Below the pieces are notes generated by a model that saw only the letters and a program-made list of their open reading frames with translations, ran no database searches and was not told where the DNA came from. A stretch of DNA of 64,000 bases from an uncultured Candidatus Actinomarina sp. (GTDB lineage Bacteria > Actinomycetota > Acidimicrobiia > Actinomarinales > Actinomarinaceae), in contig CACASI010000001.1 of the NCBI GenBank assembly GCA_902535055.1, positions 53,427 through 117,426 of the forward strand, given 5' to 3'. This document shows positions 36,930 to 64,000 of this stretch, piece by piece. A program made the translations under genes and the position numbers. How positions within the stretch are numbered: position 1 is the first letter of the stretch; the number at the start of each line of letters is the position of its first letter.

Positions 36930-37676
36930 ATGGATATTTCTCAAGATACTAATACCGTATATTTGTTTCTTTTTACTATATCAATAATTGCATCATTTAT
37001 TGATTCTATAGCTGGAGGTGGAGGTTTATTGACTACTCCGTCGATGCTAATTGTAGGTATCAGTCCCCTCACAGTTCTTGGTACAAATAAATTTCAATCA
37101 TCATTCAGCACATTTACTTCAGCACGTAATTATTTTATTAATGGATATCTAACTGATATAAACAAAAACAAATATTTTATCTTATCTTTTATAGGCTCTT
37201 CTTTGGGAACGTTAATGGTAAGTAGGCTTTCTGATGAAATTCTTCGTAAATTAATTCCAATACTTTTGATATCAGTTGCAATCTTCTTTATCCTAAATAA
37301 ACAAGTAAAAAGTGATCTAAGTAATTATGTAGTGTTGCTAACACCACTAATTTTTCTTATTGGGTTTTATGACGGTTTTTTCGGGCCTGGAACAGGATCA
37401 TTTTTTGTAATGTTATTTATTGTTTTTAAAAATCAAACATTACTTGAATCAACAGCAACATCAAAACTATTGAATTTTGCATCAAATTTTGCAGCTTTCA
37501 TAATTTTTGCATTACAGGGATATGTAATGTGGGAACTTGGAATAATAATGGCTCTTGGTGGAATTACAGGTGCCTATTTAGGATCAAAATCTGCAATAAA
37601 AGTTGGTGATAAATTAATTAGGCCAATACTGGTGGTTGTATCAATATTATTATCTTTAAGAATACTTTTCAGCTGA
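36930..37676 (+). CDS. TauE/SafE (TSUP) family sulfite/anion exporter
   Basis: 248 aa with eight TM helices and the Gly-rich motif near the N-terminus (AGGGGLLTTP), repeated in the second half. Confidence 0.8.
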   Translation: MDISQDTNTVYLFLFTISIIASFIDSIAGGGGLLTTPSMLIVGISPLTVLGTNKFQSSFSTFTSARNYFINGYLTDINKNKYFILSFIGSSLGTLMVSRLSDEILRKLIPILLISVAIFFILNKQVKSDLSNYVVLLTPLIFLIGFYDGFFGPGTGSFFVMLFIVFKNQTLLESTATSKLLNFASNFAAFIIFALQGYVMWELGIIMALGGITGAYLGSKSAIKVGDKLIRPILVVVSILLSLRILFS

Positions 37677-37701: not shown

Positions 37702-38526
37702 ATGAAAAGAATTTATACATACGGTCATCAACATGTTGAAAGAAATATCACCATTGCCGATATTATTGCAAATAAAAAAAATAAAATAAAAATGACACAA
37801 GTTACTGCTCAAAACAGAGAAGAAGCTGAAATATTATCTGATCAAAATATAGATATGATCATCACAGGTAGTGACACATATGAAGATGTAAGACAGGGTG
37901 CTCCAAATACATTTATAACTGCCGCATTATTTGCAGGTAGATTTGTAACAAAAGATGATATTTTGAAAGGGGCTATTGATGTTGCAATGAAAGGAGCGGA
38001 CTCTGTATTAACTCCTAGAAGTCCTGAAATAGTTGAAATGCTTGCTGGTGAAGGATTACATGTACAAGGACATGTTGGTATGGTTCCTTCAAATGCAACA
38101 TTATTTGGAGGGATAAGAACTGTTGGCAAAACTGCTAAAGAAGCATTAAATATTTTAAAAGAGTTAAAAGAGTTAGAAAATGCAGGTGCATTTGGGGCTG
38201 AAGTTGAATGTGTTGCTGAAGATGCACTAGTTGAAATAAGTAAACATACTAATCTCGTACTTAATTCTCTTGGAGCTGGATCTGGTGGTGATGTAATATT
38301 TCTATTCTTTGAAGATATTTGTGGTGAAACAAAAAATATTAAAATGCCAAGACATGCAAAATCATGGGGCAATGGAAATAAAATTTTAGAACAATTGAAC
38401 GAAGAAAGATCAAAAGCTATAAGAAATTTCAAAAGTGATGTTGATAGTAGTAAATTCCCAAACCATGAACATACAATATCGATGAACGATGGTGAGCTTG
38501 ATCTTTTAATTAATGAACTCAAATAA
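37702..38526 (+). CDS. ketopantoate hydroxymethyltransferase (PanB) family protein
   Basis: 274 aa. The central region VQGHVGMVPSNATLFGGIRTVGKTAKEA...AGAFGAEVECVAE...LGAGSGGDVIFLFFEDICG aligns with the PanB (PEP mutase/ICL superfamily) core. The N-terminus is divergent. Confidence 0.5.
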   Translation: MKRIYTYGHQHVERNITIADIIANKKNKIKMTQVTAQNREEAEILSDQNIDMIITGSDTYEDVRQGAPNTFITAALFAGRFVTKDDILKGAIDVAMKGADSVLTPRSPEIVEMLAGEGLHVQGHVGMVPSNATLFGGIRTVGKTAKEALNILKELKELENAGAFGAEVECVAEDALVEISKHTNLVLNSLGAGSGGDVIFLFFEDICGETKNIKMPRHAKSWGNGNKILEQLNEERSKAIRNFKSDVDSSKFPNHEHTISMNDGELDLLINELK

Positions 38527-60540: not shown

Positions 60541-61614
60541 TTATTTTTTGTTTTTAGGCTCTTCTGATATTTCTTCTTCTACTTCAGCAGTCTCATCACT
60601 TTCAATTGATTCTTCTTCATCAGATTCAATCATTCCAACTGCTTTGTATACTGCAGTTTCTAACTGTAATGCAAGATCAGGATTTTCTCGTAGAAAACGC
60701 TTGGAATTCTCTTTACCTTGTCCAAGCTGAACTTCGTCGTATGTAAACCAAGCACCAGCTTTTCTAGCTATGCCATGTTCTACAGCAACATCAAGTAAGC
60801 TACCTTCACGAGAAATACCTTGACCAAACATAATATCAAATTCAGCTTCTCTAAAAGGTGGAGCAACTTTATTCTTAACTATTTTTGCTCTTACACGGTT
60901 ACCTATCTGTTCAGGACCAACTTTTAGTGTTTCAATTCTTCGTACGTCGATTCTTACCGAAGAATAAAACTTAAGTGCTCTTCCACCGCTTGTTGTTTCA
61001 GGAGATCCCCACATGACACCAATTTTTTCACGAATCTGATTAATAAATATAACAGTTGTTCCTGATTTATTGATTGATCCTGTTAATTTACGCAATGCTT
61101 GTGACATCAATCTAGCTTGTAAACCTACATGCGTATCGCCCATTTCTCCTTCAATCTCGGCTTTAGGAACAAGGGCTGCAACTGAATCAATTACAACTAG
61201 GTCGACCCCACCAGACTGTATCAACATATCGGCAATTTCTAATGCTTGTTCTCCAGTGTCAGGTTGCGATACTAATAACTCGTCAACATCTACTCCCAAT
61301 GCCCTAGCGTAAACAGGGTCGAGAGCATGCTCAGCATCAATGAATGCTGCAACTCCTCCAGCTTTTTGGGCTTCTGCAGCAACATGTAAAGAAAGTGTTG
61401 TTTTACCGGATGCCTCAGGTCCGTATATTTCTATAACTCTACCTTTTGGGACCCCACCTATCCCTAACGCAAGATCTATAGATAATGCACCTGTAGATAT
61501 TGCAGGTATTTTTTTGATATTATCGGCACCAAGTTTCATTAATGAACCCTCGCCGAATTGTTTCTCGATTTGCTCAAAAACTGTATCTAGTTTTTTTGCC
61601 CTGTCTTTATCCAT
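60541..61614 (-). CDS. recA: recombinase RecA
   Basis: 357 aa, highly conserved ([29 protein letters not shown]). Confidence 0.95.
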
Positions 61615-61674
61615 TTTTTCTCCTTTTTAACAATAATAAATATATATTAAAACATCTTTGTATGACAATTTTAC

Positions 61675-61690
61675 TAGAACAAATGTTCTA
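61675..61690. promoter_or_regulatory. LexA (Cheo-type) SOS box upstream of recA
   Basis: TAGAACAAATGTTCTA is a perfect GAAC-N4-GTTC palindrome about 60 nt upstream of the recA start. It overlaps the cinA stop codon. Confidence 0.7.
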
Positions 61691-62896
61691 ATACAAGTTT
61701 TTAATAAATTTTATCAGCTCCCATTGAGCTTTATTTGCTGATCTTTGCAGTATTTCTTCCCTATTACCGTTCATTTTATGATCTGTTATCACAGTTTTGT
61801 CACCATTAGATATACAAATAAAAATTGTACCGACAGAATACTGGCTTGAAGATAATGGTCCAGCTTCACCCAAAATTGTTAAACAAATATCAGTTTTATA
61901 TTTTTCTAATGAAGAATGGGTTAAATTAACACAAAGTTCTTCCCAATTTTCGAAATCTATATCATTATCGTTTAATAGGATGGATTTAGCTTGATTCCCA
62001 TAAACGATATCCGAACCAATAAAATATTTACTAATACCTGGATTTTTGACAAGCAATGAAGACAAGAGACCACCAGTAATACTCTCAACAAATGAGACTT
62101 TGATATCGTTTTTAGCTATTAACGAACCAAGTGCTTTTTCAACAGATATATTTTCATAGGCAAGAATGTCATCAGAAAATATTTCATCAATTTTATCTAT
62201 AAATATATCAAAATCGCTCTTACTCACTGAATTTCTATCAAACCGTAATTTGATAATTCCTCTACTTGCAAGGTATGCAATATCTAATCCTTCAGGTTTA
62301 AATTTATCTATCTCTGCTGCAAGTGAAGATTCTGCTTGATTAAATAACATAACGAATTGGTAGTCAGTATCATTTTTTTCAAAGTTTTCAGTAAGATAAG
62401 GTAACAGTTCATCTTCAACGAGAGGAATGAACTCTCTTGGTGGGCCTGGAAAAATAAATATTTCTTTTTCGTCTTTAGATATTCTGATACCAGGAGCCGT
62501 ACCTTGTGTATTAATTAATTTTTCACTACCTGTTGGAATGTAAGCTTGTTTGATATTGGTTTCAGGCATAATAAGTCCACGACTCTTCCATCTTTCTTTC
62601 ATCCACTCAACATGGCTATCGTCTAGTTCTAAATCTAAAGATAATGAATTTGATATCACTTCTTTTGTTATATCATCTTCAGTTGGACCTAGTCCCCCAG
62701 ATGTAACAACTACATCGCAACTGTCAAGAAGATATATGATCGCATCATGTATTTCTTTTTCATTATCAGAAATTGTGATTTCTTTATTTAACTTAAAACC
62801 AGCATCATACAATCTTTTACCTAAGTTTGTTAGGTTGGTATTTACTGTATCTCCAAGTAATATTTCTGTTCCGACTGATAGAAAACCAATTTTCAT
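61688..62896 (-). CDS. cinA: CinA-family competence/damage-inducible protein (NMN amidohydrolase)
   Basis: 402 aa with an N-terminal MoCF-type domain (MKIGFLSVGTEILLGDTVNTN) and a C-terminal CinA domain. It lies upstream of recA, as in many Gram-positive bacteria. Confidence 0.8.
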   Translation of the reverse strand: MKIGFLSVGTEILLGDTVNTNLTNLGKRLYDAGFKLNKEITISDNEKEIHDAIIYLLDSCDVVVTSGGLGPTEDDITKEVISNSLSLDLELDDSHVEWMKERWKSRGLIMPETNIKQAYIPTGSEKLINTQGTAPGIRISKDEKEIFIFPGPPREFIPLVEDELLPYLTENFEKNDTDYQFVMLFNQAESSLAAEIDKFKPEGLDIAYLASRGIIKLRFDRNSVSKSDFDIFIDKIDEIFSDDILAYENISVEKALGSLIAKNDIKVSFVESITGGLLSSLLVKNPGISKYFIGSDIVYGNQAKSILLNDNDIDFENWEELCVNLTHSSLEKYKTDICLTILGEAGPLSSSQYSVGTIFICISNGDKTVITDHKMNGNREEILQRSANKAQWELIKFIKNLY

Positions 62897-62919
62897 ATTT
62901 TTAGATTAGCAAGCTTTAA

Positions 62920-63405
62920 TTGCAATATATGTATCATAGTTTTATGAGAAAATCATTGATTTTTCTATTATTGCTAACTTTTTGTTCATCAGGTTTAGAT
63001 TCAACAAGCGAAGAGACAACTCAAAGTGCTACTGTTTCAAATGTAGAAGAGTTAGTTTATGAAGATACAACTGGAACAATGATAAATGTTGATTTAACAA
63101 ATAAAAAAACATTGGTTGTGTTTTGGGCCGATTACTGAGGAATTTGTAGGGAGGAGTTGCCTCTCTTAGAAGCTAACTTAGCTACTGTTAGCCAAAATTA
63201 TAATGTAATTGCTCTTGCTCATAGCGACAAAGATTCAACAATGACTTGGATTTCTGAAAATTTAGTTGGTGAATTAGAAATTGGATTTTCTACACCGGAA
63301 ATGAGAGACAATCTTAAAATTATTGGTCAACCAATTTCAATTATCATTGATACTGATGGATCTATTCTTTCTCGAGAATATGGCTACGTTCCAAACGATC
63401 TATAA
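62920..63405 (+). CDS. TlpA/ResA-like thioredoxin-fold lipoprotein with an in-frame TGA at the first Cys of CxxC, a candidate selenoprotein (UxxC)
   Basis: Two track ORFs (62920..63138 and 63157..63405) are in the same frame and separated only by TGA at 63136-63138. The read-through product LVVFWADY-U-GICREELPLL...GQPISIIIDTDGSILSREYG aligns position for position with the TlpA pattern NFWATWCPPCR.E.P.L...GLP..FLIDRDGKIV.R..G. A hairpin GGGAGG-AGUUG-CCUCUC starts 10 nt after the TGA. The protein has a signal peptide with Cys. Confidence 0.45.
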
Positions 63406-63484
63406 TTTACAAAAATTTAACTTAATTCCGAAGCAGTTGTCATATTAAATTGTATGATGAGAGTGTAATCAAGCGGAGGAAATT

Positions 63485-64000
63485 GTGAAAAAAACAATTT
63501 TAATTCTATTGTGTCTCTCTCTTGTATTTGCTGCTTGCGGTACTGCAGAAGAGGAAACAGTAGAGGAACCTGCAGTTGTTGAAGAAACAGAAAGTTTAGA
63601 TGCACCAGCTACCACTACAGCTCAAGTGCTTGATAAAATTGTTTTCGGTTTCGTCCCAAGTGCAGAACAAGCAGAACTTTTAGACAACATTCAACCTATG
63701 ATGCAAGTTTTATCTGACGGTTTAGGAATTGAAGTTGAAGGTTTTGTTACAAGTGACTATTCGGGATTATTAGTTGCAATGGGATCTGGTCAAGCAGACG
63801 TTGGTGCGTTTGCTACATTGGGTTACGTTACAGCTATGAACGCATTCCCTACAAGATTTGAGGCAATTGCTAAATCTGTAAGATACGGTTCAGGATCATA
63901 CCATGGTACATTCTGGACAACAGATGCAAGCATTTGTGAAACCACACCAGTGATAGGTGCATTTGAAAATATCGGTGGAGTTGCAACTTTAGTTGAAGGT
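63485..64000 (+). CDS. PhnD-like phosphonate/phosphite ABC transporter substrate-binding lipoprotein; the N-terminal part is in the window and it continues past the window end
   Basis: GTG start preceded by GGAGGAAAtt. It has a lipoprotein signal (LVFAACGT) and an acidic linker. KIVFGFVPSAEQAELLDNIQPM...GQADVGAFATLGYV resembles PhnD-family SBPs. Confidence 0.55.
   Translation, partial: MKKTILILLCLSLVFAACGTAEEETVEEPAVVEETESLDAPATTTAQVLDKIVFGFVPSAEQAELLDNIQPMMQVLSDGLGIEVEGFVTSDYSGLLVAMGSGQADVGAFATLGYVTAMNAFPTRFEAIAKSVRYGSGSYHGTFWTTDASICETTPVIGAFENIGGVATLVEG

Follow-up and report, generated by a model that had tools for sequence, protein, structure and literature searches.

The 64-kb stretch of DNA analysed here (the window) raises the question of whether an in-frame TGA at the catalytic position of a thioredoxin-like gene is read as selenocysteine (Sec) or ends the protein. 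The gene lies near the end of the window within a frame of 161 codons on the forward strand, which runs from TTG 62920 to TAA 63403-63405 and has the TGA at 63136-63138 as its sole interruption, as a first-pass annotation had reported and our reading of the open reading frames confirmed. Its translation is MRKSLIFLLLLTFCSSG...KKTLVVFWADY-*-GICREELPLLEANL...IGQPISIIIDTDG..., and the immediate context of the break is VVFWADY-TGA-GIC-REELP. The ATG at 62944 is the likely true start, and an MRK or MKK beginning is conserved in relatives; the upstream ATG at 62929 and the purely mechanical TTG at 62920 are alternative starts in the same frame. The annotation had placed the gene in a low-GC, actinobacterium-like genome, and this was correct: the window has a GC content of 31.5%, and the nearest genomes, assembled from single cells and from metagenomes, belong to Candidatus Actinomarina. 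From the evidence given below, we consider it very probable that the UGA at 63136-63138 encodes Sec in a genuine Ca. Actinomarina selenoprotein gene. The features needed for the argument are the following.

62944..63405, + strand: predicted selenoprotein gene, 153 codons including Sec65, with stop codon TAA at 63403-63405
62944..62985, + strand: lipoprotein-type signal peptide MRKSLIFLLLLTF-C14, predicted from the pattern only, with a lipobox-like LTFC and Cys14 at 62983-62985
63136..63138, + strand: in-frame UGA, the predicted selenocysteine codon U65, position 1 of the U-G-I-C redox motif
63145..63147, + strand: TGT, codon of the resolving Cys68 (UxxC motif), which is invariant both within the family and across alignment A2
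63149..63165, + strand: candidate bacterial SECIS hairpin, a 6-bp stem with a 5-nt apical loop, inside the coding sequence
63331..63333, + strand: CCA, codon of the conserved thioredoxin-fold cis-proline, P130, in a GQP motif
63485..64000, + strand: start of a PhnD-type (phosphate/phosphite/phosphonate) ABC substrate-binding lipoprotein gene, a co-directional neighbour that runs past the end of the window

Once Cys was put in place of the stop, the protein matched DsbE (3gl3), TlpA (1jfu) and ResA among PDB sequences, and the TGA column corresponded to the first Cys of WCGPC; in the phmmer alignment, fwadyCgiCreelp lay over fwasWCgpCrqsfp of 3gl3, placing the TGA on the first Cys of the CxxC motif. 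The same replacement gave Pfam scores above the cut-off for AhpC-TSA (28.7 bits vs 26) and Thioredoxin (25.4 vs 23.5), and slightly under it for Redoxin (25.6 vs 26.6). An AlphaFold2 model of a natural Cys variant (P0110) had a mean pLDDT of 86.1, with helix alpha-1 beginning directly after the motif. The top Foldseek matches in the PDB were DsbE 3gl3, ResA 2f9s, Etrx2 4hqz, DsbF 3ios and TlpA 1jfu, with CcmG also matched (E about 1e-9 to 1e-7). The region of the cis-proline and IDTDG, described earlier as intact, is so, and the Pro is invariant in alignment A2. Both the TlpA/ResA-like thioredoxin fold that the annotation had proposed and its placement of the TGA at the column of the nucleophilic Cys are thus upheld by the Pfam, PDB and Foldseek results.

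The protein falls outside the named NCBIfam groups. All scores against the NCBIfam equivalogs and subfamilies TlpA, ResA, DsbE and StoA fell far under the curated cut-offs (TlpA NF047696, 39 vs 230; ResA NF002854, 33.1 vs 170; DsbE TIGR00385, 31.9 vs 123.15), and NF041054, the model for ResA-like proteins with a WAxxUGC motif, gave 28.1 bits against a cut-off of 300, the motif here being U-G-I-C rather than U-G-C. Because every NCBIfam equivalog threshold and that of NF041054 failed, we assign the protein to a separate TlpA-like subfamily. It shares the local W-A-x-x-U-G motif with the UGC-containing TlpA family of NF041054 and differs from it in length (153 residues, as compared with a profile of 354 positions) as well as in having U-G-x-C for U-G-C. 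With the extracytoplasmic, membrane-anchored reductases of the TlpA-like family cd02966 (Bradyrhizobium japonicum TlpA, Bacillus subtilis ResA and StoA, CcmG/DsbE, DsbE and DsbF of Mycobacterium tuberculosis, Etrx1 and Etrx2 of Streptococcus pneumoniae) it has in common the fold (Foldseek E about 2e-9; TM 0.65-0.73), the cis-Pro, an N-terminal membrane or lipid anchor, here predicted, and a redox motif that follows F-W-A-x-W/Y where helix alpha-1 begins. Unlike them, it has Sec, on our reading, in place of the nucleophilic Cys; identity is only 17-24%, and the gene has a PhnD-type ABC transporter beside it, not genes for cytochrome c maturation or Sco/Cox. Thioredoxin-fold selenoproteins with UxxC are high-confidence predicted families (2026 review, PMC13188914), among which the 'thiol:disulfide interchange protein' (PF13098) and the 'Prx-like thiol:disulfide oxidoreductase' (PF00578) resemble the present one in combining a TlpA/ResA-like thioredoxin fold with Sec at the redox motif.

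The TGA is conserved. It occupies codon 65 in all six of the Ca. Actinomarina species genomes found (75-93% amino acid identity). An unbiased scan of metagenome contigs for the pattern FWADY-TGN-xx-Cys gave at least 120 loci, and 58 of the 120 listed belong to the family; the codon at the Sec site of these sampled loci was TGA in 50, TGT in six and TGC in two, and TGG in none. The family loci with TGA come from many independent metagenomes and projects, and the family is deep, as the adjacent CinA falls to 52-60% identity. The annotation had asked whether Cys-containing relatives would align with the TGA, and they do: TGC or TGT lies at the Sec column, within CxxC, in L014, L016-18, L074, L104 and L111, relatives of ~40% identity with CPTC, CITC or CFTC motifs, and TGC is also found in the much closer L011 (NCBI LUMQ01006488.1, gene 287-745). 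The genes of L011 and the TGA-bearing L012 are separated by 26 differences in 459 nt, and L011 has kept the hairpin described below; either Sec gave way to Cys very recently, or the L011 assembly contains a wrong base call. Alternation of Sec and Cys at the catalytic residue is a classic selenoprotein signature, and therefore supports the selenoprotein reading.

The same scan also returned unrelated TlpA-like ORFs on soil metagenome contigs of 61-66% GC (L027, L051, L063 and L064), in which FWADY-TGA-xxC has long frames on both sides, together with close Cys twins of such ORFs (e.g. L020, L035 and L038). Other lineages, too, therefore seem to have evolved Sec/Cys pairs at the FWADY motif.

Selenocysteine insertion in bacteria is directed by a stem-loop that closely follows the UGA within the coding sequence, and the annotation had pointed to a hairpin 10 nt downstream. 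It is exactly where described: the 5' arm GGGAGG (63149-63154), the loop AGUUG (63155-63159) and the 3' arm CCUCUC (63160-63165) begin exactly 10 nt after the TGA, with a UGA-to-loop distance of 16 nt. When 39 distinct TGA-bearing sequences were aligned, all six stem pairs formed in every one of them (234/234 cells). The pairs covary: 15 sequences have G-C and 24 have C-G as the centre pair, an exchange brought about by coupled amino acid changes, E to R or Q and L to V (REELPLL vs R[RQ]ELPV[LVI]), and two further pairs alternate among A-U, G-U and G-C, while an outermost A-U pair is not conserved. The swap of the centre pair may go back to no more than a single event, or a few, in the separation of two clades. 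When the 3' arm was shifted by 1-3 columns, pairing fell from 92% to 43-66%. Codon choice within the stem is correspondingly narrow. Synonymous diversity among identical residues was 0.00, 0.00, 0.04 and 0.13 at codons +5, +6, +8 and +9, as compared with ~0.3-0.7 elsewhere; Glu was encoded by GAG in 67/67 stem codons but in 71/417 elsewhere, and Leu by CUC in 20/21 cases at codon +9 but in 10/547 elsewhere. The distant Cys-form relatives have kept the residues ELP and have no stem.

The geometry agrees with the published limits for bacterial SECIS elements, namely a loop of 3-9 nt with G in one of its first two positions, a stem of 4-16 bp, a UGA-to-loop distance of 16-37 nt and a minimum free energy (MFE) of -7.5 kcal/mol or lower. 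Here the loop has 5 nt with G then U at positions 2-3, the stem 6 bp and the spacing 16 nt, and the MFE is -11.0 kcal/mol in the window sequence and -7.5 or lower in 38/39 sequences; the SECIS-like nature claimed for the hairpin is therefore substantiated. In comparison with the bacterial SECIS consensus (the Zhang and Gladyshev 2005 model, via PMC13188914) and the SECIS of Escherichia coli fdhF, it is alike in lying inside the coding sequence, close behind the UGA, in its small apical loop with G then U near the 5' side, and in having spacing and stability within limits; it is unlike them in being short, at 6 bp, without a conserved lower stem, and in having its spacing at the allowed minimum. 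Support for the hairpin comes from the comparison of sequences, because the fold of the single window sequence was not significant on its own against shuffles (z = -0.97). Searches of Rfam at gathering and permissive thresholds gave no SECIS or other meaningful match, as expected given that bacterial SECIS elements are poorly represented there. In ~478 kb of low-GC sequence, no other gene had a GGAGTTRCC hairpin after a TGA.

The absence of Sec-incorporation genes from the genome had been named as an outcome that would speak against a selenoprotein. For the genus, the opposite has been reported: an un-reviewed preprint (bioRxiv 10.64898/2026.04.03.716425) describes selC, selA, selD and a divergent selB in 84/84 complete Actinomarina genomes, and predicts ~5 selenoproteins per genome, a thioredoxin-like one not being mentioned among them. 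The window itself holds no recognisable sel gene, nor was one seen near the lipoprotein gene in relatives, and no tRNA-Sec was found in the 64-kb window, 49 family loci or seven selD loci. A search with the low-GC SelD of a 2005 Sargasso supplement, which has the MRLT prefix described by the preprint, identified on many marine contigs of 32-33% GC a selD with an in-frame TGA of its own (MRLTQYSHGSG-U-ACKL), preceded by a strong ribosome-binding site. These loci (L139-L159; e.g. L139 9929..10954, NCBI LUML01000002.1) lie between aminotransferase IV and hydrolase genes, and their SelD matches the form that the preprint ascribes to Actinomarina. The hairpin downstream of the selD TGA is CUCGCU-CCU-AGCGA, or CUCGC-ACCAA-GCGAG in L159, and has no G in its loop. 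A SECIS motif common to this selD and the lipoprotein gene was considered and rejected, the hairpins being unlike; the comparison covers two distinct selD sequences only.

How else might the TGA be explained? It could be a chance nonsense mutation in a decaying gene, or a TGC or TGT turned into TGA by a sequencing or assembly error in one sequence. A change from TGC to TGA takes a single base, and the close relative L011 does have TGC. Against this stands the recurrence of the TGA in six species genomes and in most of the sampled loci, from independent projects. Moreover, orthologues are not truncated at the TGA: Nei-Gojobori dN/dS was 0.25 over the 26 codons before it and 0.18-0.22 for the codons after the hairpin, with dS of ~1.2-1.4 in the comparison of the two halves, and a dN/dS of ~0.2 at a dS of ~1.4 indicates that the downstream half is still translated. 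Both halves are thus under purifying selection, and the synonymous sites of the hairpin are frozen. The annotation had thought a random mutation unlikely to strike the catalytic codon; with these data, mutation or error becomes extremely improbable. A reassigned code, in which TGA would be an ordinary sense codon, for Trp (table 4) or Gly (table 25), appeals to the small AT-rich genome, such as is known from lineages with reassigned TGA, and to the database record. A search of 5.8 billion proteins returned 270 relatives, the best 120 of them full length and 75-93% identical, and 118 of these best 120 (P0001-P0120) show Trp at the Sec position, as FWADYWGIC. The Trp is, however, an artefact of gene calling, because the DNA under the entries checked is TGA and translation with table 11 does not yield the deposited proteins; gene callers switched to translation table 4 on short AT-rich contigs. 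The loci affected include L001, L002, L012, L013 and L015, and also the SelD entries of L158 and L159. Other database entries are fragments that end in ...FWADY or begin just past it. By splitting the gene at the TGA or using table 4, the callers have therefore left a false WxxC motif in public databases for nearly all members of the family. Within the window, TGA terminates 13 of the 57 ORFs of at least 150 codons, and a scan for frames open on both sides of a TGA found one plausible case in 64 kb, the gene described here, so that TGA is not a standard sense codon in this lineage. Since the family also exchanges TGA for Cys codons and never for TGG, we give reassignment hardly any credence.

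There remains the view that the UGA is recoded without selenocysteine, by hairpin-driven near-cognate reading as Trp or Cys or by pausing, or that it terminates, giving a 64-residue lipopeptide and a separate C-terminal fragment. Selenocysteine insertion is predicted here rather than observed, and a TTG at 63157 does open an ORF of 82 codons. Such a split, however, would cut the thioredoxin fold before helix alpha-1, without the nucleophile and beta-strands 1-3, and the TTG lies within the stem-loop, with no ribosome-binding sequence seen upstream of it. Against recoding to another amino acid stand the exact coincidence of the UGA with the catalytic Cys, its alternation solely with Cys codons and the fit of the hairpin to bacterial SECIS geometry, and the genus is reported to hold the full Sec pathway and ~5 selenoproteins per genome. 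Non-Sec recoding or termination is in our judgement very unlikely, if less so than the two explanations above, and we proceed with selenocysteine insertion as the preferred reading.

The product appears to be a lipoprotein. Its predicted signal peptide has a positively charged n-region followed by a hydrophobic core, and all 47 distinct N-termini of the family begin with M[KR][KR], a hydrophobic stretch and a Cys (nearly always at residue 13-15), followed by a Ser/Thr-rich linker. A lipobox-like pattern is matched by 45 of the 47; Actinomarina has a non-canonical Phe at position -1. Export and lipidation at Cys14 are predicted from these patterns. Given a lipoprotein-type signal, the redox domain is predicted to lie outside the cytoplasmic membrane, as in TlpA, ResA and Etrx.

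We propose that selenocysteine is inserted at codon 65, the UGA, during translation, and that the hairpin 10 nt downstream (63149-63165) would recruit SelB carrying Sec-tRNA(Sec) to the ribosome. The resulting precursor of 153 residues would be exported, lipidated at Cys14 and anchored on the outer face of the cytoplasmic membrane. There, the U65-G-I-C68 pair, cycling between selenenylsulfide and selenol-thiol, would act as a thiol:disulfide reductase, as in TlpA, ResA, CcmG/DsbE and pneumococcal Etrx, with re-reduction presumably by a membrane electron donor of the CcdA/DsbD type. The conserved UGA, its pairing with Cys in relatives, the covarying hairpin, the translation of both halves and the fold, which is that of the TlpA-like extracytoplasmic reductases, are shown by the comparisons above; we infer SelB binding, export and lipidation, the redox direction and the substrate.

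The neighbourhood is conserved too. On the minus strand lie miaB, recA and cinA, and on the plus strand the lipoprotein gene is followed by genes for the PhnD-type binding protein, an ATPase and two permeases. The order miaB-recA-cinA / lipoprotein / PhnD-type gene is kept in 36/36 Sec-form loci with enough flanking sequence; it spans 60541..64000 of the window and loci L003-L134, over which CinA diverges to 52-60% identity. The Cys-form relatives sit elsewhere, after gyrA-DUF3566. No terminator was found in the 79-nt gap between the lipoprotein gene and the PhnD-type gene. Because the two are adjacent in all of these Sec-form loci across deep divergence, with no terminator between them, the lipoprotein could be coupled in function to the downstream transporter, for example as an extracellular reductase that prepares or protects the substrate or the binding protein of a PhnD-type uptake system; we treat such coupling as doubtful, an outside chance. 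If true, this role would differ from cytochrome maturation and from the other functions known for TlpA-like proteins, and would explain why Sec is kept here while the Cys forms have the gyrA-DUF3566 context.

Two other links suggested by the surroundings were discarded. The neighbour passes the general model for phosphate/phosphite/phosphonate binding proteins, and with the model of putative selenate-binding proteins it scored 56 (cut-off 250), so that a connection with selenium through the neighbour was rejected. At one locus (L015 173-598; P0122), the called N-terminus has a weak Pfam match to COX15/CtaA (haem A synthase) and no signal peptide. A link with cytochrome oxidase was not adopted, other loci of that clade having the same cinA/phnD context; the P0122 N-terminus is probably a mis-called start or part of a chimeric short contig.

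The selenoprotein gene is real but not new, because near-identical genes were listed as predicted selenoproteins in 2005. Six sequences of the same family (AACY01197381, AACY01261884, AACY01056680, AACY01095051, AACY01088208 and AACY01807685) appear as 'Thioredoxin' selenoproteins in the Sargasso Sea survey of Zhang, Fomenko and Gladyshev (2005, Genome Biol 6:R37, Additional file 1). They share the FWADY-U-G-x-C motif and the downstream GGGAGGAGTTGCCTCTC with the window protein, and AACY01197381 agrees with it at all but 2 of its 95 listed residues (~98% identity). The group carries the plain label 'Thioredoxin', its members are mostly truncated at the N-terminus and no organism is assigned; the lipoprotein signal, the TlpA-like assignment and the synteny given in the present account are absent from the Sargasso paper. 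The first-pass annotation, which held a Sec-containing protein in such a genome to be notable, therefore overstated the novelty, as the family was in the 2005 list and the use of Sec by Actinomarina was reported in 2026. The present analysis adds the assignment to Actinomarina and relatives, the lipoprotein and TlpA-like nature of the protein, the comparative proof of the SECIS element and the synteny with a transporter.

The value as discovery is accordingly small, the family having been predicted in 2005 and the trait reported in 2026. The finding confirms that Actinomarina, among the smallest free-living marine bacteria (~1.1 Mb genome), spends part of that genome on selenocysteine, and it names one target, a redox lipoprotein predicted to be surface-exposed. 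It thus bears on the selenium demand of the surface ocean and on extracellular oxidative-stress or disulfide chemistry.

One further TGA in the window deserves mention. A gene for a TauE/SafE-like membrane protein (K07090-type, as judged by eye; 36930..37676, + strand) ends in TGA at 37674-37676, and its frame stays open for 20 codons beyond (HQLILKCIYEKNLYIRSSTC), to 37739, overlapping the ATG of the next gene at 37702. A K07090 family selenoprotein was called by deep-Sep in 49 Actinomarina genomes (bioRxiv 10.64898/2026.04.03.716425). The TGA at 37674-37676 looks more like an ordinary stop.
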